Source: an uncultured Porphyromonadaceae bacterium (GTDB lineage: Bacteria; Bacteroidota; Bacteroidia; Bacteroidales; UBA12481). From it: a DNA stretch of 64,000 nt. Below, one piece after another: positions 939-42,790 of this stretch. Position numbers and translations under genes: made by a program. The DNA lies in assembly GCA_964512915.1 (NCBI GenBank), contig CAZEKJ010000005.1, positions 10,394-74,393 of the forward strand, written 5' to 3'. The notes under the pieces are model-generated. The model did not search any database. It saw only the letters and a list, made by a program, of their open reading frames with translations, and was not told the DNA's origin. Position 1 is the stretch's first letter; every line of letters begins with the position of its first letter.

Positions 939-992
939 CAACCGGCAACCGGTAACCGGTAACCGGTAACTAGCAACCAGCAACCAGCAACT
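939..992. repeat. heptamer tandem array (CAACCGG/TAACCGG/CAACCAG, ~7.7 units), preceded by junction TTCTGGCC (932-939)
   Basis: Counted by hand with period 7. The last unit, CAACTA, supplies the TAG stop of the symporter gene. Confidence 0.9.
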
Positions 993-2919
993 ATTTTCTC
1001 TGAATGTACCCCGAATCCTTATGGTCCCTCACCATCGTGCGGAGCGCGTGGATCATCTCTTTCAGGTTTTTCAGGCCGCCGATTGTGAACCAGATGGTTA
1101 CGATAATGGAGGTAATCAGGTAAATCCAGGTATAGATTTTCCAGAATGACATCCAGGTTTCGTTTTTCACTTCGGTGGTGAGATTGTATATCGTTCCGAT
1201 GATGAACACAATGGTCCATGCTGCCGTCCATGTATAGGTTGCGATCAGGATCCCTTTATCGGATTTTGTAAATTCCTTGGTTGCTCCCATCACTTTCCAT
1301 CCTTTCACGGCTTCAGCCTCCTCAACCACATTGGTTTCACCCACAATGGCGTACTTCCCGCGGTGCAGCATTTTGTCCATGTTGTATGGCTCTTTCGAGG
1401 TGATCAGGGATACAATAAAATAGATCAATGCGCCTGATATCATTGCGATAAACCAGAACCACTGTCCGTTGATCGGGAAGTCTTTAACCACGGAGTTAAG
1501 CACGATCCCGGTAGTGGCGATTGTGGCTCCGGCGATCATGGCCGACCAGGCACCGGCAGTAGTTCCCCGCTTCCAATAAAGCCCGCCGATGATGGCCGCA
1601 CCGGACCCGCCCACATAAATGGCGCCGGAGATGGCAAGGAACAGGAATACTTTTTCGGTTTGCTGGAACAGGATGCTGAGGATGAAAATGGTGATGCCCA
1701 CCCCAAGAATGGAGAGTTTCAGGTATTTCAGATGCTGTGCCTGCTCGAACGGTTTCTTCCTGAAAGGCATGATGCAGTCCTGAATGAAAATACTTCCCCA
1801 GGAGTGCATATAGGTGTTGTGAACCGTGATGGAGGCTGCCAGCATGATGGCGGCAAAGGCTCCCTTGAAACCGATGGGGAGGAGATAGTTCAGAACCATC
1901 GGGGTCCTGAGCTGACTTTGCATGGCTTCGGTGCCGGCGCCGGCCAGGGTGCCGTTAATGCTGGCAGCGATATCCTTGAAATCAACATGATTATAAATAG
2001 TATAGGCTACTATCGGGATAAAGACCAGAAACAGTCCCCATTGCGGGATCAGGCGCCAGTTTGTAAGCAAATCAGCCATCTTTGCCTCATGTGCATTTTT
2101 TGCTGCCACGTTGAATGAACTGTTGCCCTGCCAGGAAAGCTTGGTATACACAAGACCAAACATCCCGATAAAGAAAAACCAGATATTAAAATCCTGTACC
2201 TTGCTGGATTGGAATGGGTTGATGAGGGAGGCATCCTTTGGTGCAGCCTCCATGGCTTGTGAAATATGGGCCCAATCAACTTTAATTATCAGCAGAATAA
2301 CTATTGCTACGAAAACGATGTTAACGAAAACCCCCTGGATAAAGTCAGTGAACATTACCGCAACATGGCCGCCGGTGAGGGTAAAGAATAACGGGATGGC
2401 CACAATGAGCGCTGTGATCAGGATAAAGGTGGCCGAATAGGGCCCGATTTGCCCGACTTCCGGAATCCCGCAGAAATAGATGAAGAATCGGGCGGTTACT
2501 GAGGGGAAGATCACCATATTGACGATCCCGGAGAGGAAGGCGAGAAAACCGGAGAATATGCGGAAGCCGCGGCTATAGCGTACCTCAAAGAACTGGGCCA
2601 TCGTCATCACGCGGGTCTGCCGGTAGCGGTAAACCACCCATCCGGTTACGCTTATCCCAACCAGGAGAATTGTTGTAAGCATCTCCCACCATCGGGCATT
2701 GAAGCCGGCAGAGAAATTCTGTTCCATCACCCCCACAATGGTGATCGCACCCAGTGCGGCCGTACCGTGAAACATCGAGATTATGTAACGTCCGCCCGTC
2801 CGGCCGGTTGCCAAAAAATCACTCACGCTGTGCATCAGCTTCTTGCTCAGGAAAACCAGTCCGAACATCAGGGCCAGCAGCGCTGCAACGATTGCCCAAT
2901 CGATCACAGTAAGGTTCAT
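991..2919 (-). CDS. sodium:solute symporter (SSF) family transporter
   Basis: 642-aa polytopic membrane ORF with many hydrophobic segments and an N-terminal region typical of SSF permeases. It is co-oriented with the glycoside phosphorylase genes. Confidence 0.8.
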   Translation of the reverse strand: MNLTVIDWAIVAALLALMFGLVFLSKKLMHSVSDFLATGRTGGRYIISMFHGTAALGAITIVGVMEQNFSAGFNARWWEMLTTILLVGISVTGWVVYRYRQTRVMTMAQFFEVRYSRGFRIFSGFLAFLSGIVNMVIFPSVTARFFIYFCGIPEVGQIGPYSATFILITALIVAIPLFFTLTGGHVAVMFTDFIQGVFVNIVFVAIVILLIIKVDWAHISQAMEAAPKDASLINPFQSSKVQDFNIWFFFIGMFGLVYTKLSWQGNSSFNVAAKNAHEAKMADLLTNWRLIPQWGLFLVFIPIVAYTIYNHVDFKDIAASINGTLAGAGTEAMQSQLRTPMVLNYLLPIGFKGAFAAIMLAASITVHNTYMHSWGSIFIQDCIMPFRKKPFEQAQHLKYLKLSILGVGITIFILSILFQQTEKVFLFLAISGAIYVGGSGAAIIGGLYWKRGTTAGAWSAMIAGATIATTGIVLNSVVKDFPINGQWFWFIAMISGALIYFIVSLITSKEPYNMDKMLHRGKYAIVGETNVVEEAEAVKGWKVMGATKEFTKSDKGILIATYTWTAAWTIVFIIGTIYNLTTEVKNETWMSFWKIYTWIYLITSIIVTIWFTIGGLKNLKEMIHALRTMVRDHKDSGYIQRK

Positions 2920-2935
2920 AGTTGTTAGATATTTT

Positions 2936-3140
2936 TAAATCTCAAATCTCAAAAAACAAATCTCAAATAAGCTCCAAAAAACAAATCACAAATCACAAAA
3001 AACAAATCTCAAATCACAAAAACCAAAAACCAAATAAGCTCCAATCCTCAAGCTCCAAAAATTCAAACAGTGCGAGTTTGGGGTTTTGAGTTTTGGTTTT
3101 TGGAGCTTATTTGGTTTTTGTTTTTTGTGGTTTGAGGTTT
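2936..3140. repeat. composite C/A-rich arm + unique core + T/G-rich arm (long imperfect hairpin)
   Basis: AAATCTC/AAATCAC/AAAACCA units. Perfect 21-nt stem, CAAAAACCAAATAAGCTCCAA (3024-3044) against TTGGAGCTTATTTGGTTTTTG (3100-3120). The loop holds the core TTCAAACAGTGCGAGTTTGGGG. Confidence 0.85.
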
Positions 3141-3146
3141 ATTATG

Positions 3147-4103
3147 TTATCCGCAATTCATCATTAATTCCGCGATCGTTGACACGGCCAGCCCCACGCA
3201 CGTATCCGCCGCCCCGTAGTAAACGTACACTTCACTTTCGGGTTTGGCAAATCCTTCGGCATCAAAATCATGTACGATGATCCCGCTGGGGAACACCACG
3301 TTCGGTACCTGTCCGGCCAATTCCCATATCTCTCTTGGCTCCAGTATGTTATAGAATCCACGGCTGATTACCTTCGATGGATCATTCAGATCAAGGAGCA
3401 TTACCCCTGCCTGATATATATTGGCGCTGCCGAAATGGGTGGCCACCCCGTGATATATATGAAGCCATCCTTCCCGTGTTTTCACCGGCGGCGGACCGCT
3501 GCCGATAAACTCATCCCAGTAGTGGAACCTCCCGTCGATCACCGGTGCAACAGGTTGCCAGTCAATCAAGTTCTCTGATGAGGACAGCCAGATGGTGCTT
3601 CCAGATGATGGGCCACCGGTGTGGCGGGCCTTGTTGGGGCGGTCGAGCCGCATGTATCTCCCATTGATTTTCTCCGGAAACAGCACCCCGTTCCGTATAT
3701 CTTCATTTGAGGTGATCCCCAGGAACTTAAACTCCTTAAAATCATCAGTCTGGCCCAATCCCAGCTGGCACCCGGCATCCATGTCCATCGCAAACATGAT
3801 ATAATACGTGCCTTCGAGAAAGGTGATCCGGGCATCATAAATATGGTAGACCTTCTCCTTGATTTTTTCAATCCCCTTAAAATCAACGATATGGTCTTCC
3901 GCTTTGAAGTGGATGCCATCGGTCGACTCAGCCATCACCATGAATGTTTCACGGGATCGGCTCTGGGTTCGCAGCATCATCAGGTACTTATCGCCAAACT
4001 TAATGGCACCGGGGTTAAAAACCGAGCTGCAGTCGATCAGGTGAGGAGCGATAGCGGGGATATCGCTGCGGGTAAGGATGGGGTTAATCTTGTATCGTTT
4101 CAT
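3147..4103 (-). CDS. GH130 beta-mannoside phosphorylase (short, BT1033/RaMP2-like size class)
   Basis: 318 aa. Contains SVFNPGAIKFGDKYLMMLR, IYDARITF, RNGVLFPEKINGRYMRLDRPN and GWLHIYHGV, which match the GH130 five-bladed propeller phosphorylase pattern. Confidence 0.85.
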   Translation of the reverse strand: MKRYKINPILTRSDIPAIAPHLIDCSSVFNPGAIKFGDKYLMMLRTQSRSRETFMVMAESTDGIHFKAEDHIVDFKGIEKIKEKVYHIYDARITFLEGTYYIMFAMDMDAGCQLGLGQTDDFKEFKFLGITSNEDIRNGVLFPEKINGRYMRLDRPNKARHTGGPSSGSTIWLSSSENLIDWQPVAPVIDGRFHYWDEFIGSGPPPVKTREGWLHIYHGVATHFGSANIYQAGVMLLDLNDPSKVISRGFYNILEPREIWELAGQVPNVVFPSGIIVHDFDAEGFAKPESEVYVYYGAADTCVGLAVSTIAELMMNCG

Positions 4104-4115
4104 TGTTGATGTTTA

Positions 4116-4303
4116 TATCTCAAATCTCAAATATCAAATTTCAAAAAACAAATAAATCTCAAAAACCAAAACTCAAAACCCCAAACTCGCACTGTTTGAA
4201 ATTTTGTGGTTTGAGAATTGGAGCTTATTTGAGATTTGTTTTTTGTGGTTTGAGGTTTGTCTTTTGGAGCTTATTTGCTTTTTGGATATTGTTGTTTGTG
4301 GTT
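4116..4303. repeat. composite C/A-rich arm + core (inverted) + T/G-rich arm, same family as 2936-3140
   Basis: Contains the exact reverse complement (4163-4200) of 3062-3099, plus two TTGGAGCTTATTTG-initiated 41-nt modules (4218-4258 and 4264-4304). Confidence 0.85.
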
Positions 4304-4310
4304 TCATAGG

Positions 4311-4661
4311 TTATTGTGATTTCAACAGTATTGCTGAAAGTATCTTTTTAAGTTCTTCGGATTCCTTCATAAGAGCCAGACCTTCGGCCTGATATTTATC
4401 TTCATTTGTTTCTGTGATAAGTCTAAGCCAATATTGGCTCTCTTTTGCTTCTTTCCGACAAATTTTGATCCTCATTACAAAGTCTTTCTTGCTCAGGGCT
4501 TCATTCGCCTCGATATAATTTGCTCCAACGGATCCTGATGATCGAACCACTTGTTTGCCATATTCTACATTTGAAATGTCCTTAACTAATCCTTTTATGA
4601 AAAGAGCAACCCTCTTCGAAAACTGAAAAGTCCTCTCCTCTAAATCATTACGCTGCCCCAT
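4311..4661 (-). CDS. four-helix-bundle protein (23S rRNA intervening-sequence protein / Avd-like family)
   Basis: 116 aa. QVVRSSGSVGANYIEANEALSKKDFVMRIKICRKEAKESQYWLRLI matches the family signature (R-S-x-S-I-x-A-N-I-A-E-G ... E-x-x-Y-W-L). Two hand-counted 60-nt samples gave 35-38% G+C, against 47% for a sample of the adjacent GH94 gene. Confidence 0.8.
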   Translation of the reverse strand: MGQRNDLEERTFQFSKRVALFIKGLVKDISNVEYGKQVVRSSGSVGANYIEANEALSKKDFVMRIKICRKEAKESQYWLRLITETNEDKYQAEGLALMKESEELKKILSAILLKSQ

Positions 4662-4664
4662 TGC

Positions 4665-4737
4665 TGTTTGTTTTTTTGATTTTTGATTATTGGAGCTTAT
4701 TTGATATTTGTTTTTTGTGATTTGTGATTTGTGATTT
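4665..4737. repeat. T/G-rich arm with 41-nt module (4690-4730), same family as 3100-3140
   Basis: TTGGAGCTTATTTGATATTTGTTTTTTGTGATTTGTGATTT. It ends 6 nt before the GH94 stop codon. Confidence 0.85.
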
Positions 4738-7145
4738 TACCCCAGCATTACCTCAACATGGCAAACCTCCTTGTCTGTCAATGGAATCCGATAGTCTACT
4801 CCCTTAACTATCTCAACTCCCTCAACTAGAACTTTCCTCACACCGCTCTCTTTCCCCTCCGGATTCAGCACGTGTATGATGTAACGTGTTCCCCGGTGCA
4901 CCCTTTCCATGGTAAATTCTTTCCAGTCTGAAGGAATGGTAGGATCGATGATCAGACCGTCATAGCCTGCGCGGGCGCCGAAGATGTAGTCGAACACCAC
5001 CCGGTACATCCAGGCGGCGGTTCCGGTTTGCCAGGAATGACTGGCCCGGCCGGCGGTTTCATGCTCGTCGCTGGTGATGTACTGGGAGTAAACATAAGGC
5101 TCGGCGAAGAAGGTATCGGAGTCAATGCGGTTCGGCAGCATCTTTTTGTAATAGCGGAAGGCTTCATTGCCATGACCCAGCATGCACTCTGCCTGAATCA
5201 GCCAGGTAGTGGGGTGGCCAAAGATGGCACCGTTCTCCTTTTTGCCCCATACACAGCGGGTTACCAATCCGATTTTGGGATCGATCTCCCGATAGGCCGG
5301 CGTGCATTTCTTCGGACCCTGTTCACTGTCGAGATGCGTGCGGATGCTTTCAAGAGCCTGCTCCTGGCGCTTGGGATCGAGTCCCGCCAGCACAGCCCAG
5401 GTTTGTGTGTTGATAAAAATCTTCCCGTATTTATTGTCCTTTGCCCCGATGCGCTTCTGGTTCTCGCCAAATGCCCGGATATACCAGTCACCGTCCCAGC
5501 AGTTGTCGTCCAGGGATTTAGCCATCCTGCTGGTCACTTCCTCAACAGCCGACTTCAGATCGGGCTTTTCAATCCTTGCCAGCAGTTCGATCAGCAGGTT
5601 CAGCATGGATACATAGAACATACCGCCCCAGACGCTCTCCCCGCCATCATCGCCGCCGATGTAATCCAGCGTGTCGTTCCAGTCGCCCCGGCCAAAAATA
5701 GGGAGTCCATGAGCCCCGAGATTTCCCTTTACGAAAGTGACAACGGCCATCAGGTGGTCGAGAATGGTTCCCGAAGTTCCATCATTATAGGGCTGAACCT
5801 CACTCAATATGCCAAAATCTCCGGTTTCTTTGATATAGTCCGTCACCGCCAGGATAAACCACAGCGGATCGTCGCAATGCTTGGTATACTCGCCCTGACC
5901 ATCGCCGTGGAAGTGATGGTACACTTTTCCATCGCCCCGCATCTGTCTGGCTAACATCAGGATACGTTGTTTGGCCTTGTCCGGATAGGAGATGGTTACC
6001 GCAATGGTATCCTGGGCTGTATCCCGGAACCCGAATCCCCTGCCGATCCCCCAGTAATAAAAACTGGTTACCCTCCCAATGTCAAACGCCACCTTGGCCT
6101 GGTAGGGCGACCAGCCGTTCATGAAAATATTCACATCCTGATCCGGAGTCTGAACTTTGGTGTGCGCAAAATACGCATCCCAGTATTGACGGACCTCGGC
6201 GAAGGCCTGCTCAACCTCCCTTTTATCCTGATACTTTAATACTTCATACTTTCCTTTTGCCTTCCTGCCCTCTTGCCCTCTGCCTTCGAAATCCGTTTTC
6301 GGAATCACGCCCAACTGAAAGATTACATCCCGGATTTCACCCGGAGCAAGTTCTATCTCGATTTGTATCGCCCCAACCGTGTTTCCAAAATCCGTGTCTT
6401 TACATCGTAAGTTGCCGGTTTCCAGGGCAATCGGGTTGGTTTCGTTCCGGTAAAACCCGATGAACTCCTCGCGGATCGTCTCATATTTAGTAATCGGGTG
6501 GTTAACCGTGAAGAAAGCCCACTGGTCCCACTCCTTGTTTTCCTGCTGCTGGGTTCCTTTGGTTTCGGTAACCCAGTAGGTCTTGGTGCCGAAAATCGAG
6601 TTTAATTCCTTATCCAGATAGACACGGTTAAAGTGCTGGTCATCACACTGATTAATAAGATCCACCAGCGCATGACCCAGCGCAAACTCTACATAACCGG
6701 TTATTTTTAGCCGTCGCTTTTTATCAGATTTGTTTGTCAGGACGGACTTCCAGATCTCGCGGTTATCGGTTCTCGGGACAAAAAACAGGAGTTCCGACTG
6801 AATTCCTTCAATTTCAGATTCCACGCGGGTATAACCGAATCCGTGCGCCACCCGGTATTTCTCCAGATGGTTGCCTACGGGCTGCCAGGTGAGGCTCCAC
6901 ATTTCGCCGCTGTCCTGGTCCTGAATATAGATGTATTTTCCGGGCCGGTCGGCTGGTACGTCGTTGATCCGGTACCGCGTGATCCGTCCGTGCAGGGGAA
7001 TCCGGTGGTAGCTGATGCCGCCGCCGTTGGCAGAGATGGTTGAGAAATATTCGTTATTATAAATGTAATTGATCCATGGGCGCGGAGTGGCCACATTATC
7101 AATGATATACTCCCGGCCATCTGCCGAGAAATGTCCGTAATTCAT
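4737..7145 (-). CDS. GH94 glycoside phosphorylase (cellobiose/chitobiose phosphorylase family)
   Basis: 802 aa. The N-terminus GREYIIDNVATPRPWINYI...GGGISYH...RITRYRINDVPADRPGKYIYIQD and the overall length are typical of GH94. Confidence 0.85.
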   Translation of the reverse strand: MNYGHFSADGREYIIDNVATPRPWINYIYNNEYFSTISANGGGISYHRIPLHGRITRYRINDVPADRPGKYIYIQDQDSGEMWSLTWQPVGNHLEKYRVAHGFGYTRVESEIEGIQSELLFFVPRTDNREIWKSVLTNKSDKKRRLKITGYVEFALGHALVDLINQCDDQHFNRVYLDKELNSIFGTKTYWVTETKGTQQQENKEWDQWAFFTVNHPITKYETIREEFIGFYRNETNPIALETGNLRCKDTDFGNTVGAIQIEIELAPGEIRDVIFQLGVIPKTDFEGRGQEGRKAKGKYEVLKYQDKREVEQAFAEVRQYWDAYFAHTKVQTPDQDVNIFMNGWSPYQAKVAFDIGRVTSFYYWGIGRGFGFRDTAQDTIAVTISYPDKAKQRILMLARQMRGDGKVYHHFHGDGQGEYTKHCDDPLWFILAVTDYIKETGDFGILSEVQPYNDGTSGTILDHLMAVVTFVKGNLGAHGLPIFGRGDWNDTLDYIGGDDGGESVWGGMFYVSMLNLLIELLARIEKPDLKSAVEEVTSRMAKSLDDNCWDGDWYIRAFGENQKRIGAKDNKYGKIFINTQTWAVLAGLDPKRQEQALESIRTHLDSEQGPKKCTPAYREIDPKIGLVTRCVWGKKENGAIFGHPTTWLIQAECMLGHGNEAFRYYKKMLPNRIDSDTFFAEPYVYSQYITSDEHETAGRASHSWQTGTAAWMYRVVFDYIFGARAGYDGLIIDPTIPSDWKEFTMERVHRGTRYIIHVLNPEGKESGVRKVLVEGVEIVKGVDYRIPLTDKEVCHVEVMLG

Positions 7146-7166: not shown

Positions 7167-7201
7167 GATAAAAAAAATGTAAGGGCGAGCTGCGCTCGCC
7201 C
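7167..7201 (-). terminator. intrinsic-terminator-like hairpin + T8 on the minus strand, 22 nt upstream of the GH94 start
   Basis: Stem GGGCGAGC (7183-7190) / GCTCGCCC (7194-7201) with a 3-nt loop. On the minus strand it is followed by TTACATTTTTTTT (A-run 7170-7177 on plus). Confidence 0.45.
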
Positions 7202-7222
7202 GTTTTGGCATGAGCACAGTGG

Positions 7223-7266
7223 GGGCACAAGGGCACAAGGGCACAAGGGCATAAGGGCATAGGGGG
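7223..7266. repeat. octamer tandem array GGGCACAA/GGGCATAA (~5.5 units)
   Basis: Counted by hand with period 8. Confidence 0.9.
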
Positions 7267-7273
7267 GTGCACT

Positions 7274-7300
7274 TGTCATCCCTGCGAAGGCGGGGATCCC
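7274..7300 (+). repeat. GTCATCC-N4-GAAR-N4-GGATC hairpin element (copy 2; stem ATCCCTGC/GCGGGGAT with one T-G wobble, loop GAAG)
   Basis: TGTCATCCCTGCGAAGGCGGGGATCCC. Confidence 0.7.
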
Positions 7301-8660: not shown

Positions 8661-9464
8661 GTGAAGACAATCAAAAAGATTCGGTACGTATGGAAATTCG
8701 CATACCGGCACCTGTTTTTCAAGGCCTGGTACCGGGTTATCAGCATCCTCGACAAAAAGGCGGAAGTGCTTTTTATGAATTTCGGCTACCATAATGATGA
8801 GCATGTCCTGAACCTGCTTCCGGAGGAGCAGATCAACCGCTATTCAATACACCTCTACCATCAGTTGGTTCACAAGCATCAGCTGTCGGGTAAGAAAATC
8901 CTGGAGGTCGGATGCGGACGGGGTGGCGGTCTGGCTTATGTGAAACGGCAATTCGCTCCGGCCCTGGCAATTGGCCTCGACCTGGACAGCAAGGCGGTTA
9001 AGTTTTGCCGGAATCATCATCCCTCAATAGGTTTGGAATTTGTGGCCGGAAATGCCCATCAGCTGCCTTTTGAGGACAATTCATTCGATTTTGTCATCAA
9101 TGTGGAATCGTCCCACCGGTATGAAAATATAGGTCAGTTTCTGAATGAGGTTCACCGGGTCCTTCGTCCCGGCGGTTTTTTCCTGATTACTGATTTCAGG
9201 CGTGAGTTTTTGGTTGATAAGTTCGACAAAGACCTGAATACATCGAACTTGACAGTGGCTGTGCGGGAGGATATCACCCCAAATGTTACGGCAGCCCTTG
9301 AACGGGACGACGCCCGCAGAAAAGAGCTGATCAACCGGATCGCACCCTTTTTCCTCAAAAAATTGGCACTGGAATTCGCAGGAATAAAGGATTCCGATGT
9401 TTACAGGAACTTTGAGTCGGGCCGGTGGGTCTACCTGAATTATTTTCTACAGAAAGATTCTTGA
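8661..9464 (+). CDS. class I SAM-dependent methyltransferase
   Basis: Motif I ILEVGCGRGGG and post-I/II motifs (FDFVINVES, LRPGGFF). GTG start preceded by AAGGAG (8650-8655). The alternative ATG is at 8775. Confidence 0.75.
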   Translation: MKTIKKIRYVWKFAYRHLFFKAWYRVISILDKKAEVLFMNFGYHNDEHVLNLLPEEQINRYSIHLYHQLVHKHQLSGKKILEVGCGRGGGLAYVKRQFAPALAIGLDLDSKAVKFCRNHHPSIGLEFVAGNAHQLPFEDNSFDFVINVESSHRYENIGQFLNEVHRVLRPGGFFLITDFRREFLVDKFDKDLNTSNLTVAVREDITPNVTAALERDDARRKELINRIAPFFLKKLALEFAGIKDSDVYRNFESGRWVYLNYFLQKDS

Positions 9465-9465
9465 T

Positions 9466-9579
9466 GCGTGAAGCGTGAAGCGTGAACCGTGAAGCGAAAT
9501 ATTGGAACGGTTCTCGCTTCTCGCTTCTCGCTTCTCGCTTCACGCTTCACGCTTCACGATTCATGCTTCACGCTTCACG
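9466..9579. repeat. imperfect palindrome of heptamer arrays: (GCGTGAA)x4 - spacer - (TTCTCGC)x4 (TTCACGC-like)x6
   Basis: Fills the whole gap between convergent genes. It begins 2 nt after the TGA of the methyltransferase and contains the stop of the URO-D-like gene (9568-9570). Confidence 0.9.
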
Positions 9580-10611
9580 TCCCGTCCTGAACATCGTCAG
9601 TATATTCTCAATCGGAATCCCATCATGCAGGGAATGATCGGAAGCCAGGATGTATCCCCCGCCGGGTGAGGCGATTGCAATGGCTTCGCGGACTTCGGCA
9701 GCAACTTCTTCAGGAGTTCCGAAAGGCAGGGTACGTGTAGAGTCGATATTCCCGATAATGCAGAATCGGTTGCCGTATTTTCCCTTGATGGTTCTCAAAT
9801 CCATATGGGCCGTACGCTGCAGGGGATGAACCGAGCAGATCTTGGTCTGGGCCAGGTCGTCCAGATAGGCATTGATGTTCCCGCAGGAGTGCAGCAGTAC
9901 CGGAACCCCCAGACTGTCAATATAATCGGCCATATCATGAATATAAGGCAGGAAAATCTCCCGGAAATGATCCACGGAAAAGAAACAGCTGTTGCTGTCG
10001 CCCAGGTCCTCGCTGATCCAGAGGCCTACACATCCTGATTCCACGGAACGGCGTGCAGCCTCCTTGAAATATTCGTTCGACATTTTCAGCACGTCGGTGA
10101 TCAGGCCGGGGTCCTCATACAGTGCATAACATATGCGTTCGAATCCCATCAGGAGCCAGGCAGTGCAAAGGGGACCACTGACCCCGCCCAGGATGGCCAT
10201 GTTTTCCCGGTTGTTTTCCACCGCGGCAAGGATCTCCGAATTCCGGCCGGGGAGGGTGGGGTCGGGGAGCCTGTATTTTCGAAGGTCTTCCCTCGATTTG
10301 ATCGGGTAATCGATCGGGGCATCAATCGGCCAGGAACTCTCATTTTTCTGATAGGTGGTGCCCCACTCATCCTGATAAACGTTGTCCTTCAGATATTTGG
10401 GCTGCAGTCCGGTAAATCCTCCAAATGGCACCCAAACCCCGTCGTGATCCAGCGCCAGCGCGCACTCCACAGCATCCTTGCCGTTATAACCCTCGGGTTT
10501 ATGCCCGATCAGGTGTTCATACAACGGCTGCTGAAACAGAAAATCAAACATCGGGACGCGATCCGGCACCTCCCGCCTCAACGCACTTAAAAAACGCTCT
10601 TTCCTATTCAT
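9568..10611 (-). CDS. uroporphyrinogen decarboxylase (URO-D) superfamily protein, MtaA/CmuA-like
   Basis: MNRKERFLSALRREVPDRVPMFD at the N-terminus, with length and C-terminus typical of URO-D-like methyltransferases. I prefer the ATG at 10611 over the track's GTG at 10617, which lies inside the repeat array. Confidence 0.7.
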   Translation of the reverse strand: MNRKERFLSALRREVPDRVPMFDFLFQQPLYEHLIGHKPEGYNGKDAVECALALDHDGVWVPFGGFTGLQPKYLKDNVYQDEWGTTYQKNESSWPIDAPIDYPIKSREDLRKYRLPDPTLPGRNSEILAAVENNRENMAILGGVSGPLCTAWLLMGFERICYALYEDPGLITDVLKMSNEYFKEAARRSVESGCVGLWISEDLGDSNSCFFSVDHFREIFLPYIHDMADYIDSLGVPVLLHSCGNINAYLDDLAQTKICSVHPLQRTAHMDLRTIKGKYGNRFCIIGNIDSTRTLPFGTPEEVAAEVREAIAIASPGGGYILASDHSLHDGIPIENILTMFRTGREA

Positions 10612-10612
10612 T

Positions 10613-10650
10613 GGCACATTGGCACATTAGCACATTAGCACATTAACACC
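10613..10650. repeat. octamer tandem array GGCACATT/AGCACATT (~4.7 units)
   Basis: Counted by hand. Same family and orientation as 12090-12145. Confidence 0.9.
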
Positions 10651-12043: not shown

Positions 12044-12089
12044 GTTTATTTGTGTAATTTCTTAACTTGACTGATTCGTTTCCTTAATT

Positions 12090-12145
12090 AGCAAATTGGC
12101 ACATTAGCACATTAGCACATTGGCACATTAGCAAATTGGCACATT
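12090..12145. repeat. octamer tandem array AGCAAATT/GGCACATT/AGCACATT (7 units)
   Basis: Counted by hand with period 8. Confidence 0.9.
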
Positions 12146-12175
12146 AAATTATCTTTAGAGCAAATTAAACTAATT

Positions 12176-13517: not shown

Positions 13518-13554
13518 TCGTAAATCGTAAATTGTAAATCGTAAATCGTAAATC
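13518..13554. repeat. heptamer tandem array TCGTAAA (~5.3 units)
   Basis: Counted by hand. It ends 6 nt before the TerC start codon. Confidence 0.9.
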
Positions 13555-16164: not shown

Positions 16165-16190
16165 CAAATCCCTCCCTCATACCCTCTTAA

Positions 16191-16278
16191 AGTCTTACAG
16201 TCTTACAGTCTTACAGTCTTACAGTCTTAAAGTCTTACAGTCTTAAAGTCTTACAGTCTCTCCGTCTCTAAGTCTTCC
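16191..16278. repeat. octamer tandem array AGTCTTAC/AGTCTTAA (11 units)
   Basis: Counted by hand. The last units, CGTCTCTA and AGTCTTCC, contain the phoU stop codon and its last three codons. Confidence 0.95.
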
Positions 16279-21975: not shown

Positions 21976-22074
21976 GTCGGATTTTGCTATGATCAAATTC
22001 TTTTTTACCGTTACAAAGAGACTGCTGAAATGTGAACCGGAAGTTACCACAATATTAAGAAAAGGTTAAGGACA

Positions 22075-22115
22075 GTTGCCGGTTTCCGGTTGCCGGTTAC
22101 CGGTTGGGCCAGAAC
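22075..22115. repeat. heptamer array GTTGCCG/GTTTCCG/GTTACCG + junction GGCCAGAAC (22107-22115)
   Basis: Counted by hand. It is the inverse partner of 22199-22230. Confidence 0.9.
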
Positions 22116-22189
22116 TGTCATCCCGGCGAAGGCCGGGATCTCCTGCCTCAGAGTATTTTCAGGAGATTCCGGTTTTCACCGGAATGACA
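22116..22189. repeat. 74-nt three-hairpin module closed by TGTCAT/ATGACA (two GTCATCC-type hairpins in inverted orientation around a central hairpin)
   Basis: H1 is ATCCCGGC-GAAG-GCCGGGAT (22120-22139). H2 is ATCTCCTG-14 nt-CAGGAGAT (22138-22167). H3 is ATTCCGGT-TTTC-ACCGGAAT (22166-22185). All three stems are perfect 8-bp. Confidence 0.8.
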
Positions 22190-22198
22190 TCAGTGCCA

Positions 22199-22230
22199 TA
22201 ACCGGCAACCGGTAACCGGCAACCGGCAAC
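22199..22230. repeat. heptamer array TAACCGG/CAACCGG (~4.6 units)
   Basis: Its last unit, CAACTA(G), supplies the TAG stop of the gene at 22230. Confidence 0.9.
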
Positions 22231-24422
22231 TAGTCCTCCACCATTCCCCCTGGCCCGGCCAGCCTGAATTCCACCTTCCACTCCTTCGGCCAGGCAGGGA
22301 ACCGGAGAACCTCATTCCCATACCATTGAACGAGCATCCGCTGGAGGGCTATCATGGCAACTGTGCCATGGTCCTGATCGGGCGACCAGTCGTAATTCGG
22401 TCCCCAGAATGCCGGAAAACGGCACTCCGGATCGGAATGTGAAAACTTATCAATCACCAGAGCTGCTGCCTCTTCAGCAAGTCCGAGACAGGCCGCCTGG
22501 ATTGCACTGTGCTGCCAGCCTATGTTCATCGTGTGTCTGCGGTTCTCGTAGGTCCGGATGGCCAGGTCAAGAAAAAGCTCCGAAGGGCCATATATACGGA
22601 AGGGGAAAATAGCATAGAGTTCGGGGTTTTCAATATTGGCAAGCCTTGCGGAGTTGCGGGCCGGAGCAATGACACTTTCCTCACCGATTTTTCTCAATGG
22701 AATTTCAGGTATTGCCGCGGATAGCAGCTTCCACCTTTTTTTCAGGTCCCTGCCAACCAGGGAGTCCGGAAATGTTAGCATGTGACGTGTTATGCTCATG
22801 AGCCCGGCAATATCCGGAGTGGGATCCACAGCCGTCTGGTAGGTCTCAAGTGCCTGGGCCGGGGTGAAAAGGATTTTCCCTTCAATATCCCGGGGCCAGT
22901 GCTGGTCGAAAAAGGTGAGGATCTCGGTCACAAACGGAACCAGGGTGTCCCTGGCAAAACCAGTTCTTTGGGTAAACCGGTAATAATCAATCATCATCTC
23001 ACTAACCTCGAGCCCGCCCGTCCAGTAATAACGGATATAGGTGTTCTGAGTCAACCCGTCGGGCATGCCCTCGCGATTCCTGCCGTAATTATCATTGGTA
23101 TAGGTGCCCCAGAAATACATGGTTTCCGGATAAAAAGCCCCGTCATGGCTGTAATACTTCTTTGTTGCAGCCTTCCGGAGCGGCAGGGCATCCATATACA
23201 TTCTGAACAACGGTGCCATCATTTCAAAATCTCCTGCCTGCAGCATCGACCAGTAAGGAAGACGGGTGTTTTGAAACCAGTAGGGCCCGCCCCACAAGCG
23301 AAAATCGGCATCAAAACCTTTGCGAACTGAACGATTATAAGTGTCAACGGTAAAAATCGAGCCGTTGAATTTTATAGGCGAGCCTCCCCGGCCGGAACAG
23401 GCGTTCATAAAACGCTGAAGAATATAGCCGCGGGTCACGGTTTCGGCCGACTTTGCCGGACCCTCCTGATCGGCACTGATAAAGATGTAGCTCCGGGTCC
23501 AGAAATCAGTCCACCAGTTACGGTGGTTCCGGATCCGGATTTCCGGCACTGTCTTTCCGATTTCCGAAATCCGGGTATCCAGGCTTTTCTGCCACTCTGC
23601 CAGGGGCTTCGAGGTAGTCGTTAAAGGATATACCAACAAGGTAAACTTTCTCGAATTGCTTATACTCTTAAGCTTCAGCTTTGATTCAGCCTGCATTCCG
23701 GAACCTTCAATGGCCGCGCCAAAAATGCGTCCGAGGAGCGGATCGGCAAGGCTGCCGGTCATATCACCCAGAGCCTGCAGATTGAGATTGTCGGCCCAGA
23801 TGGAACGGCTGTTCCGGTGAAACCAGGTCAGCCTTCCTCCCGAAGCGGGCAGGATCGAGTCGGGATCGATGACCACGGGCTCTCCTTTTGCCTGCTGCAT
23901 GCCATACACAGCGGGCAGCTCATCGGGATTGCTCATGATCCGCGGTGCCGTGCGCCAGGGCTCCAGCAAAACTTCTGCTGCAAGCGGCCGGCCGGATTCA
24001 ATTGCCACCTCGGCAAGCGGATGGTTGGCATCAGCCCGGATAACGATCTCAACAGGTTCCCCGGCTGAGCCTCCCTTTATCCTGATCTCCCCACGCTCAA
24101 GGTCAAGTTCCTGGCGGAAAAGATTTCCCTTTGTAAAAGGATTGGGAGTCAGCCGTATACGAACCTTTCCAAGCTTAAGTAATTGGGCATTCTCACTCCA
24201 GGCATCGGTCTTTGAAAGATAAAACAGCAAATCACCATCCTCTTCCACCCAGACATTCATTCCGATATCACCATTACCCACAGGCATGGAGCCCAGTGAA
24301 TTCAGGCTCGGGGTTTCCCAGATGACATTATACTTGCGGAGTTCCCGGATCGGGTCAAAGGTCTGGGCGGCCAGCAGCTGCACAACCAGCAGCATAGCCC
24401 AAAACAGGCTGAGCTTTTTCAT
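22230..24422 (-). CDS. secreted DUF5703-type protein (GH95-like six-hairpin glycosidase candidate)
   Basis: Signal peptide. The N-terminus YNVIWETPSLNSLGSMPVGNGDIGMNVWVEEDGDLLFYLSKTDAWSENAQLLKLGKVRI matches my recollection of the DUF5703 N-terminal domain. The family name needs an HMM check. Confidence 0.55.
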   Translation of the reverse strand: MKKLSLFWAMLLVVQLLAAQTFDPIRELRKYNVIWETPSLNSLGSMPVGNGDIGMNVWVEEDGDLLFYLSKTDAWSENAQLLKLGKVRIRLTPNPFTKGNLFRQELDLERGEIRIKGGSAGEPVEIVIRADANHPLAEVAIESGRPLAAEVLLEPWRTAPRIMSNPDELPAVYGMQQAKGEPVVIDPDSILPASGGRLTWFHRNSRSIWADNLNLQALGDMTGSLADPLLGRIFGAAIEGSGMQAESKLKLKSISNSRKFTLLVYPLTTTSKPLAEWQKSLDTRISEIGKTVPEIRIRNHRNWWTDFWTRSYIFISADQEGPAKSAETVTRGYILQRFMNACSGRGGSPIKFNGSIFTVDTYNRSVRKGFDADFRLWGGPYWFQNTRLPYWSMLQAGDFEMMAPLFRMYMDALPLRKAATKKYYSHDGAFYPETMYFWGTYTNDNYGRNREGMPDGLTQNTYIRYYWTGGLEVSEMMIDYYRFTQRTGFARDTLVPFVTEILTFFDQHWPRDIEGKILFTPAQALETYQTAVDPTPDIAGLMSITRHMLTFPDSLVGRDLKKRWKLLSAAIPEIPLRKIGEESVIAPARNSARLANIENPELYAIFPFRIYGPSELFLDLAIRTYENRRHTMNIGWQHSAIQAACLGLAEEAAALVIDKFSHSDPECRFPAFWGPNYDWSPDQDHGTVAMIALQRMLVQWYGNEVLRFPAWPKEWKVEFRLAGPGGMVED

Positions 24423-33048: not shown

Positions 33049-33071
33049 GTTTTATTCTAACAAATACTCAC

Positions 33072-33135
33072 AGTCTCAAAGTCTTATAGTCTCAAAGTCT
33101 TATAGTCTCAAAGTCTTATAGTCTCAAAGTCTTCT
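33072..33135. repeat. 16-nt tandem array AGTCTCAAAGTCTTAT (4 units)
   Basis: Counted by hand. Confidence 0.95.
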
Positions 33136-33167
33136 GACTCTCGGTCTCTCGGTCTCTCGGTCTCCAA
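33136..33167. repeat. octamer array GACTCTCG/GTCTCTCG (4 units)
   Basis: Counted by hand. It runs up to the stop of the amidohydrolase gene. Confidence 0.85.
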
Positions 33168-39968: not shown

Positions 39969-40026
39969 TTGCCGGTTGGAAGACAGTTCCCGGTTGCCGG
40001 TTACCAGTTACCGGTTAGGCCAGAAC
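39968..40026. repeat. heptamer array GTTGCCG/GTTACCG + junction GGCCAGAAC (40018-40026)
   Basis: Starts within the TAG stop of the EEP gene (TAGTTGCCGG). Confidence 0.9.
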
Positions 40027-40028
40027 TT

Positions 40029-40063
40029 TCTCCCGACTCCCGTCTCCCGTCTCCCGTCTCCCA
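40029..40063. repeat. heptamer array TCTCCCG/ACTCCCG (5 units)
   Basis: Counted by hand. Confidence 0.85.
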
Positions 40064-40118
40064 GTCTCTTGGTCTTAAAGTCTAACAGTCTTAAAGTCTA
40101 ACAGTCTCTAAGTCTTCC
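40064..40118. repeat. AGTCTTAA/AGTCTAAC octamer/16-mer array
   Basis: Its last units contain the stop and the last three codons of the flavin reductase gene. Confidence 0.85.
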
Positions 40119-42730: not shown

Positions 42731-42757
42731 GTACAGACGCATGTATGCGTCCCGACA

Positions 42758-42790
42758 AATCGTAAATCGTCAATCGTAAATCGTCAATTT
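42758..42790. repeat. AATCGTA/AATCGTC heptamer array (TCGTAAA family)
   Basis: Counted by hand, ~4.7 units. Confidence 0.85.

Follow-up and report, generated by a model that had tools for sequence, protein, structure and literature searches.

PF05635 is a very large protein family of unknown function that forms at least 8,000 clusters when grouped at 90% identity and 6,572 when grouped at 50%, and its only studied contexts are the intervening sequences (IVSs) of rRNA genes and the Avd proteins of diversity-generating retroelements (DGRs). The IVS of Coxiella burnetii is a selfish element of ~430 nt, with a 28-bp stem of complementary termini and an open reading frame (ORF) for the PF05635 protein S23p (PMC4990558). 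The S23p start codon is immediately preceded by two or three tandem copies of the heptamer GACAGAT, and RNase III cuts at the first of them (PMC4990558). The number of heptamers varies between strains, one strain carries a 176-bp deletion in the ORF, and the G+C content is below that of the host (PMC4990558). The Avd protein of DGRs binds RNA stem-loops beside its own gene (bioRxiv 10.1101/2023.10.23.563531). Here we describe a PF05635 gene that encodes a four-helix-bundle (4HB) protein and lies between two phosphorylase genes in a 64-kb stretch of DNA, referred to below as the window, from an uncultured Porphyromonadaceae bacterium.

Two further bodies of work provide background. The intergenic DNA of bacteria, notably of Xanthomonas (GGGAATC) and Nostoc (GGGGATT), is enriched in heptameric simple sequence repeats (SSRs), which often lie within operons and in some cases occur as inverted pairs capable of forming stem-loops; the survey draws no link between them and 4HB genes (PMC4692102). 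Other surveys list PF05635 as 'associated' with cas/CRISPR loci (PMC3936711, PMC10910872).

We interpret window positions 4104-4736 as an IVS-type cassette residing in an mRNA, that is, a promoter-less 4HB gene set within inverted arrays of degenerate heptamers, and we assign this interpretation a probability of about 55%. In its layout the segment matches the Coxiella IVS except for the host molecule and is therefore read as an mRNA-resident cassette of the same type.

The cassette and its operon

The locus comprises the following features, in the direction of transcription.

4737-7145, minus strand: GH94 phosphorylase gene, the upstream cistron (PF17167, 1e-114; PF06165, 2e-78); stop codon at 4737-4739
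4662-4736, minus strand: 5' arm of the cassette, C/A-rich and G-poor on the transcript (75 nt, 24% G+C), ending at the 4HB ATG
4311-4661, minus strand: 4HB gene (S23p / 23S-rRNA-IVS protein / Avd-like), 116 aa, with PF05635 and TIGR02436 profile matches
4200-4310, minus strand: second C/A-rich arm just past the 4HB stop codon, a direct repeat of the 5' arm (family D1) and the 5' half of a local hairpin
4182-4198, minus strand: core of the hairpin loop, a 17-mer reading CAAACAGTGCGAGTTTG on the transcript, read from the sequence
4104-4181, minus strand: 3' arm of the cassette, U/G-rich on the transcript (inverted repeats I11, I13, I17 and I20), ending 12 nt before the GH130 ATG
3147-4103, minus strand: GH130 phosphorylase gene, the downstream cistron (PF04041, 9e-50)
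2920-3146, minus strand: ORF-less (solo) hairpin of 227 nt in the spacer between GH130 and SSS, recognised as a reverse-complement copy and by its fold energy
991-2919, minus strand: sodium/solute symporter (SSS) gene, the last cistron (PF00474, 2e-21)

The four genes are consecutive on the minus strand, in the order GH94, 4HB, GH130 and SSS. Their spacing was compared with that in 80 loci recovered by a metagenome scan with GH130 as query. In relatives with 65-80% identical GH130, GH94 and GH130 are only 4 nt apart, and the 633-nt segment between them in the window is therefore an addition. GH130 and SSS are ~24 nt apart in the same relatives, so the 227-nt hairpin before SSS is an addition as well. 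The GH94-GH130 gap of cassette-less relatives ranges from 4 to 30 nt. The cassette is thus a discrete insertion between once-abutting GH94 and GH130 genes, made in an ancestor of a Bacteroidota sub-clade, which confirms the statement in the preliminary description of the window that the 4HB gene interrupts an operon.

Carriers of the 4HB gene in this closer clade are the window, locus L002 (4HB 78% identical), L003 (86%) and the P0002 contig (94%). The closest relatives, L084 and L085 (GH130 92% and SSS 97% identical), carry a 4HB ORF (L084:1004-1267, L085:3584-3847) with an in-frame 29-aa deletion, KESQYWLRLITETNEDKYQAEGLALMKES. The deletion removes invariant residues, the remaining protein is ~93% identical, and the gene looks like a decaying copy. 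L086, L087, L088 and L090 (GH130 84-88% identical) have no cassette, and a 30-nt C/A leader is all that remains in L087. Carriers and non-carriers are mixed in a neighbour-joining tree of GH130, which rests on a single gene and is not robust. Comparison of the GH94-GH130 spacer among relatives, as suggested earlier, therefore finds the cassette present, decayed or absent, and sister lineages have suffered its decay or loss. Synteny is confined to the sub-clade.

Synonymous sites of the 4HB gene are saturated among the window, L002 and L003 (synonymous divergence pS 0.78-0.89), and non-synonymous divergence (pN) is 0.10-0.13, matching that of GH130. It follows that the 4HB gene has long been kept under purifying selection. 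The gene has 37.9% G+C and 35% G+C at third codon positions (GC3), compared with 50.3, 51.2 and 51.8% G+C and GC3 of 62-65% in SSS, GH130 and GH94; the spacers around it have 24-30%. This low G+C content, relative to neighbours at 50-52%, had been noticed before and is not host-like. With synonymous sites saturated, however, the AT-rich codon usage is a maintained state and not the trace of a recent arrival: the gene is old at this site and selected.

The 116-aa protein is a member of PF05635/TIGR02436. It scored 52.6 bits against PF05635 (curated cut-off 33.8) and 70.9 bits against TIGR02436 (curated cut-off 24). The sole sequence relative with a solved structure was BT_0352 (PDB 2RLD, five chains; E 6e-15), and similarity to Avd was undetectable at the sequence level (phmmer). 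An AlphaFold2 monomer model, built on 40 homologues, reached a pLDDT of 94.6 and showed four helices at residues 2-23, 29-53, 58-85 and 88-115. Foldseek gave template modelling (TM) scores of 0.80 to 2RLD, 0.80-0.83 to 2GSC (Xcc0516) and 0.68-0.71 to the DGR Avd structures 4DWL and 8UB7. Structure prediction thus bore out both the family assignment and the Avd-like monomer fold put forward in the preliminary description. By analogy with the five chains of 2RLD and with the literature on Xcc0516 (PMC4990558), the protein probably forms a homopentamer.

Scans for sigma-70 promoters and terminators returned nothing beyond the level of shuffled sequence. The PADLOC and PHROGs libraries of defence and phage proteins gave no match, and no paralogue of the 4HB gene was found elsewhere within the window. 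In a search for RNA evidence, the window was found in groundwater DNA metagenomes only.

On the transcript, the 5' arm consists of degenerate heptamers (AAATCAC x3 ... CAAATAAGCTCCAA ...). Tandem Repeats Finder (TRF) detected a period-7 array at 4673-4738, upstream of the 4HB ATG, and further period-7 arrays at 4117-4188, within the region of the 3' arm. The 12-mer GGAGCTTATTTG occurs six times, always within 2964-4703, where 0.4 occurrences are expected from shuffles. Read on the forward strand, direct T/G-rich copies at 4195-4284, 4241-4330 and 4667-4756 are 69-76% identical to 3077-3166, and the C/A-rich arm at 4122-4154 is 85% complementary to 4705-4737 (inverted repeat I13) and 76% complementary to 4234-4266. 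The duplex between the 3' arm and the arm upstream of the ORF, which encloses the ORF, has a predicted energy of -44.3 kcal/mol, and that between the 3' arm and the adjacent C/A arm, which forms the local hairpin, -42.2 kcal/mol. In the minimum free energy (MFE) fold of the 671-nt transcript, it is the long-range pairing that forms, between the distal arm and the arm that precedes the ORF. The proposed direct copies of the T/G-rich module, with an arm able to pair with either of them, were therefore recovered, as was the predicted placing of the ORF in the loop of a long stem, which proved to be the norm of the family (see below).

The spacer 2996-3140 is a 145-nt, 83% reverse-complement copy of 4122-4266 (inverted repeat I1). 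On the transcript, this solo hairpin runs through a C/A arm (3143 to 3081), a loop core (3080 to 3064) and a U/G arm (3063 to 2936). The fold of 2920-3146 has -68.3 kcal/mol (z -6.7) and that of the spacer 4104-4310 has -41.2 kcal/mol (z -3.1), and stems of meaningful free energy are thus predicted at both sites. Judged by its sequence and fold, 2920-3146 is an ORF-less copy of the cassette hairpin, in agreement with the earlier suggestion that 2936-3140 is the element without its ORF. The two direct C/A arms around the ORF would offer an obvious route to deletion of the ORF that leaves a solo hairpin. Both hairpins end 12-17 nt before a start codon, that of GH130 or that of SSS. Assessed as a palindrome like those of miniature inverted-repeat transposable elements (MITEs) or repetitive extragenic palindromic (REP) sequences, the solo hairpin has two copies in the window, in opposite orientation, and no recognisable target-site duplication. 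Rfam gave only sub-threshold, miRNA-like generic hairpin matches in this region.

The 17-mer loop core CAAACAGTGCGAGTTTG also forms the loop of the 2920-3146 hairpin, in opposite orientation, and of both hairpins of L084 and L085. The core in the GH130-SSS hairpin (window 3064-3080) is inverted relative to the orthologous hairpin in L084, which is the flip that would be expected of recombination between inverted arms.

At the same site in L002 (7434-7560), the GH130-SSS spacer contains a hairpin of another repeat (ACAGAGA... / ...CTCCGTG), which is not of the C/A-T/G type. Hairpins at this site appear to be replaced over time, beyond mere mutation. In the P0002 contig, DUF6922 and AbiEii genes, absent from the window, lie between GDPD and GH94.

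The same unit in other phyla

Homologues of the 4HB protein amounted to >8,000 cluster representatives at E <1e-3. Many of these are 70-85% identical to it, and their source names include Bacteroidia, Nitrospinota, Candidatus Jorgensenbacteria and Ca. Scalindua. A search of species-representative genomes yielded >590 relatives, of which the best 80, picked by similarity to the query, were examined; they are 58-75% identical and come from ~10 phyla. Their hosts are Planctomycetota, Bacteroidota, Ignavibacteria, Desulfobacterota with 'delta' lineages, and many Patescibacteria, and also Cloacimonadota, Nitrospirota, Armatimonadota, Calditrichota and others.

At almost every one of the 80 loci, the adjoining genes are long ORFs in the same orientation. 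Co-orientation holds for 74 of 81 upstream neighbours and for 71 of 76 downstream neighbours, with median spacers of ~80 nt. The G+C content of the ORF is below that of its flanks in nearly all loci, typically by 5-15 points, in hosts ranging from 31% to 68% G+C. The 115 neighbouring genes matched 179 Pfam families, and insertion recurred between subunits of the same enzyme (nuoC/nuoD, leuC/leuD, gatA/gatB and hisH/hisF). The unit of ORF and arms is therefore found, in sense orientation, within operons of unrelated function in different phyla, and its phylogenetic structure is slight.

The flanks share a composition. The 60 nt before the ATG are G-poor, with a C+A fraction of 0.70 versus 0.47 in controls, and the 80 nt after the stop codon have a T+G fraction of 0.66 versus 0.42. 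The two flanks are also complementary, with a median Smith-Waterman score of 15 versus 7.5 for flanks of neighbouring genes (Mann-Whitney p = 6e-23), and cognate arm pairs score above non-cognate ones (p = 2e-6). Aligned arms are 77% Watson-Crick complementary over ~45 nt. When whole elements are folded, at least 15 bp connect the two flanks of the MFE structure in 82% of the 83 loci, with a median of 31 bp, compared with 24% of random windows of the same size (median 7 bp). Against shuffles, duplex z-scores had a weak median of -2.6, since T/G-rich arms pair with C/A-rich ones even after shuffling; the neighbour-gene and non-cognate controls and the whole-element folds were used in their place.

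Alignment of 27 'mini-elements' revealed a 7-nt period and a common consensus, with a 5' arm ...AAATnCCAAATnnCAAAnnCCAAATnnCAAATAAATTnCAATG and a 3' arm ...TTTGGAATTTATTTGGnATTTG...TTTGGAATTTAA, and the termini of the element are conserved as TAAATTCC ... GGAATTTA. Of 82 loci, 27 have the motif CAAA[TC]AAAT ahead of the ATG; its background frequency is 0.03 per kb. At several loci the 3' arm also holds the complement of the start codon region (ATGACCAAA / TTTGGTCAT). Arms were of the types CCA, CTA and CGA, with few non-CCA cases for comparison with protein similarity. An extra C/A arm with a loop, as in the window, is present in L003, L084, L012, L019 and L064. ORF-less hairpins with the same arms were found in Patescibacteria (L012) and Gracilibacteria (L047), and a similar one in L003. 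Relatives elsewhere thus carry similar flanks, and since ORF and arms travel together across phyla, the view that the ORF is an incidental cargo of the repeats has to be given up.

Protein identity is 66.5% within phyla and 63.2% between them, and the nearest neighbour of a protein belongs to the same phylum in 36 of 65 cases, versus 13 expected by chance. In this set, picked by similarity to the query, the figures indicate a weak vertical signal over a background of horizontal spread.

Some contigs or operons contain two 4HB genes (L035:3971-4336 and 5268-5636; L044:4001-4351 and 4470-4766; L015:898-1272 and 3920-4336). These pairs are 40-75% identical to the query and either flank one host gene or stand in tandem; in L015 and L035, whose flanks were inspected, each of the four copies has its own arms. 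An Rfam scan of ten relatives' loci found no rRNA and detected tRNA-Sec in two, from unrelated metagenome-assembled genomes, where it follows the 4HB ORF on its strand at a distance of ~160-300 nt (L041:4631-4724, L030:1081-1174).

A more distant case comes from a Planktothrix agardhii plasmid (L165; NZ_LR882964.1, 2180-3040), where a 40%-identical 4HB gene has the DISARM gene drmD on one side and a gene for an MmeI-type restriction enzyme on the other. Its flanks consist of (CCCCAAT)6(CGTAAAT)4 and a complementary (CGATTTA)n.

The cassette has to be seen against the repeats around it. The window contains 27 tandem arrays in 64 kb (overlapping TRF rows merged), mainly of periods 7 and 8 and their multiples and made of many different units, an SSR density that is unusually high for a bacterial genome. 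Within 300 nt of the 4HB genes of the 80 loci, the density of tandem arrays is 4.5 times that elsewhere in the same loci (119 versus 27 per 100 kb), where multiples of 7 likewise predominate. G-poor heptamer leaders also precede start codons in related Bacteroidota that lack a 4HB gene (L086, L090, L106, L110 and L118). Repeats alone are therefore insufficient as a criterion; the defining trait of the cassette is the presence of complementary arms with shared motifs around a conserved ORF.

The arrays inspected in the window sit in spacers between ORFs; examples are 939-991, 10609-10649, 12087-12146, 13518-13554, 16185-16259, 33067-33164, 39986-40116 and 42757-42788. A hairpin at 9451-9579, unrelated to 4HB, has heptamer arms (GCGTGAA)n/(TTCACGC)n with up to 93% complementarity and fills the spacer between convergent methyltransferase (8661-9464, plus strand) and URO-D (9568-10617, minus strand) genes. 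At 22074-22231, also unrelated to 4HB, inverted (GTTNCCG)n arrays surround a small G+C-rich hairpin, tgtcatcccggcgaaggccgggatc. A near-copy of the small hairpin, gtcatccctgcgaaggcggggatcc, lies just upstream of GH94 (7190-7300), beside a (GGGCACAA)x4.6 array.

Interpretation and alternative explanations

From these patterns we infer a stem that forms in vivo and is cut by RNase III, and a mobile unit whose protein takes part in its spread. In the transcript, the arms would form a long, A.U-rich, imperfect stem and so close off a domain that contains the ORF with its start codon. In the window copy, the 3' arm could instead pair locally with the duplicated C/A arm and free the 4HB leader. These near-isoenergetic pairings would represent two states, closed when the stem takes in the ATG and open when a local hairpin forms ahead of GH130. 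By analogy with the 23S IVSs of Coxiella and Leptospira, the stem may be a substrate of RNase III; cleavage would release the 4HB mRNA and part the GH94 message from the GH130-SSS message. The 4HB pentamer may bind its own heptamer arms or the stem and help to maintain or propagate the element, a role suggested by the Avd analogy and by the rough match of five or six heptamers per arm to a pentamer. The 2920-3146 hairpin would be a derivative, which might have arisen when direct arm copies recombined, or through MITE-like spread.

Several observations weigh against this interpretation. The stems are imperfect, with a median best ungapped register of 22.5 of 35 positions; registers shifted by 7 nt match ~17 positions and out-of-phase ones ~10.5. 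One covarying C:G position (CG 17, UA 5, GC 3) changes in all heptamers of an element together, and such concerted change fits homogenised repeats or protein-binding iterons as well as it fits a helix. Mismatches of the G.U type number 118 versus 96 of the A.C type, a ratio that does not separate constraint on RNA from constraint on DNA. The metatranscriptome contigs that cover the cassette of L004 (Scalindua), at a depth like that of its flanks, carry no RNA ends. Picking the 80 loci by similarity to the query compresses the contrast of protein identity within and between phyla. Part of the repeat content may simply be a habit of the lineage, given the unrelated arrays and the heptamer leaders without 4HB. 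Finally, no transposase, target-site duplication or vector was found: IMG/VR held no relative of 4HB, two weak partial matches came from INPHARED, no plasmid or phage match exceeded 48% identity, and those in PLSDB were mostly cyanobacterial and at most 43% identical.

A recurrent break in the L004 contigs at 3246-3275 was considered as an RNA processing end. Its 30-nt overlap fits a break in the assembly graph, and it was not used as evidence.

A DNA-level element would explain part of the pattern differently. Its arms would be the terminal inverted repeats or iterons of a MITE-like non-autonomous transposon, with 4HB as a passenger and any RNA structure incidental. The conserved termini TAAATTCC ... 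GGAATTTA suit such an element, as do the ORF-less hairpins in several phyla (window, L003, L012 and L047), the loop inverted between the window and L084, a sign that the arms recombine as DNA, the concerted change of all heptamers within each element, and the lack of a wobble asymmetry (118 versus 96). We nevertheless consider it rather unlikely, since the near-universal sense orientation (74/81 and 71/76) calls for a cause at the level of RNA or expression, purifying selection acts on the supposed passenger, and the rRNA IVSs, which are the only relatives studied, function as RNA (PMC4990558); no transposase was found nearby and no target-site duplication could be recognised. The opposite view dispenses with a discrete element altogether and takes 4HB as an ordinary, vertically inherited member of the operon, separated from its neighbours by generic heptamer SSR spacers that arose by slippage or serve as translation leaders. 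The 27 arrays of the window, in which periods 7 and 8 predominate and many units are unrelated, are in keeping with this, together with the 4HB-unrelated heptamer hairpins at 9451-9579 and 22074-22231, the leaders without 4HB in L086, L090, L106, L110 and L118, the general excess of intergenic heptameric SSRs in bacteria (PMC4692102) and the equal non-synonymous divergence rates of 4HB and GH130. A resident gene would not, however, be accompanied by arms with shared motifs in every phylum sampled, nor by arrays 4.5 times denser within 300 nt of it; its flanks would be repetitive without being complementary, and it would hardly be present and absent inside one clade or show nearly the same identity between phyla as within them. 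This makes the explanation distinctly unlikely.

The hairpins might also have been domesticated as stabilisers, insulators or translational controllers of the mRNA of this glycan operon, with 4HB as their RNA-binding regulator or chaperone. Their position 12-17 nt before the GH130 and SSS start codons, the two near-isoenergetic pairings, which could serve as a switch, and the long retention of the gene under purifying selection are all compatible with a regulatory module. Its absence from close relatives, or the presence there of a broken 4HB gene, is not, and the occurrence of the unit in unrelated housekeeping operons speaks against an operon-specific role; we regard this explanation as very unlikely. 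That 4HB is the Avd of a DGR, or a remnant of one, is suggested by fold similarity (TM 0.68-0.71 to 4DWL and 8UB7) and is extremely improbable. No template/variable repeat pair was found, and its closest solved sequence relative is the stand-alone 2RLD and not an Avd. The DGR reading was rejected because the Pfam-scanned genes include no reverse transcriptase within 12 kb and all have ordinary metabolic domains; they cover ~16 kb on one side and ~4 kb on the other and comprise GH94, GH130, SSS, GDPD, methyltransferase, URO-D, MFS transporter, peptidase M28, TerC, PhoU-like and PHO4 genes.

The mRNA-resident IVS-type cassette thus remains our preferred interpretation. A full-text literature search found no description of arm-flanked 4HB genes outside rRNA, although its coverage was incomplete and a prior description is possible. 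The window instance is itself an ordinary member of the family, and the interest lies in the family-wide pattern and the testable mechanism. Tentatively, and with considerable doubt, the pattern may be generalised further: 4HB with inverted heptamer arms would be a so far unrecognised, pan-bacterial class of selfish cassette in rRNA genes and operons, sense-oriented, insulated or excised at the RNA level by its own stem, with a pentamer that recognises the heptamer arrays. Its ORF-less footprints would account for much of the excess of heptameric SSRs (cyanobacterial short tandemly repeated repetitive (STRR) sequences, Xanthomonas GGGAATC and the window arrays), and its insertions for the 'association' of PF05635 with CRISPR, DISARM and other operons.

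Should the stand-alone members of PF05635 prove to be IVS-type cassettes in mRNAs, the rRNA IVS would be one niche of a general element and no longer a ribosomal oddity. The family would gain a testable ligand hypothesis, its own heptamer arms, and the transcripts of carrier operons a testable form of processing. Links of PF05635 to CRISPR adaptation modules, cas operons and defence islands might reflect hitch-hiking insertions (as in L165, drmD/MmeI), and the intergenic excess of heptamer repeats would have a candidate source. For annotation, the cassette marks an insertion that splits abutting or translationally coupled genes (GH94/GH130, nuoC/nuoD, leuC/leuD).

Comparison with known systems

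The cassette most closely parallels the rRNA IVSs of Coxiella (helix 45) and Leptospira. In both, a PF05635/S23p 4HB ORF is enclosed by complementary, stem-forming termini, and tandem heptamers, variable in number between strains, stand right upstream of the start codon. A good Shine-Dalgarno sequence is absent, G+C is below that of the host, and distribution is patchy and horizontal. ORF decay has a counterpart too, the 176-bp deletion in one Coxiella strain corresponding to the 29-aa deletion in L084. Unlike the IVS, however, the window copy is located in an mRNA operon, flanked by the GH94 and GH130 coding genes, and not in rRNA; its heptamer is AAATNCN instead of the GACAGAT of Coxiella, and it has an extra, duplicated arm that permits an alternative local hairpin. 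RNase III cleavage has been demonstrated for the rRNA IVS and is a prediction by analogy for the window element. The window protein is clearly under purifying selection, whereas Coxiella S23p is apparently not made.

With Avd (4DWL, 8UB7) the protein shares a four-helix-bundle monomer and membership of a pentamer-forming family, and Avd binds structured RNA in the region flanking its own gene. The 4HB gene differs in having neither a reverse transcriptase nor a template/variable repeat pair, and its nearest structures are the stand-alone proteins 2RLD and 2GSC.

STRR sequences and other heptameric SSRs are likewise tandem heptamers in spacers, and L165 is flanked by (CCCCAAT)6 and (CGTAAAT)n. 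The CCCCAAT unit there is that of STRR1 (Mazel et al. 1990). Such repeats have been described without an associated gene, whereas here inverted arrays bracket a conserved ORF and travel jointly with it.

The ORF-less hairpins (2920-3146, L012 and L047) resemble REP sequences, bacterial interspersed mosaic elements (BIMEs) and MITEs in being short, palindromic and intergenic, in lying within operons and in occurring in either orientation. They differ in their low-complexity heptamer arms and in the existence of a full form that bears an ORF; no RAYT or transposase partner is known for them, and no target-site duplication was seen. Integron cassettes, finally, share with the 4HB cassettes a promoter-less ORF, an imperfect inverted-repeat site, expression from a host promoter and a fixed orientation. 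In contrast to integron cassettes, 4HB cassettes are single and dispersed, without an integrase array, and have repeats on both sides of the ORF instead of one attC.

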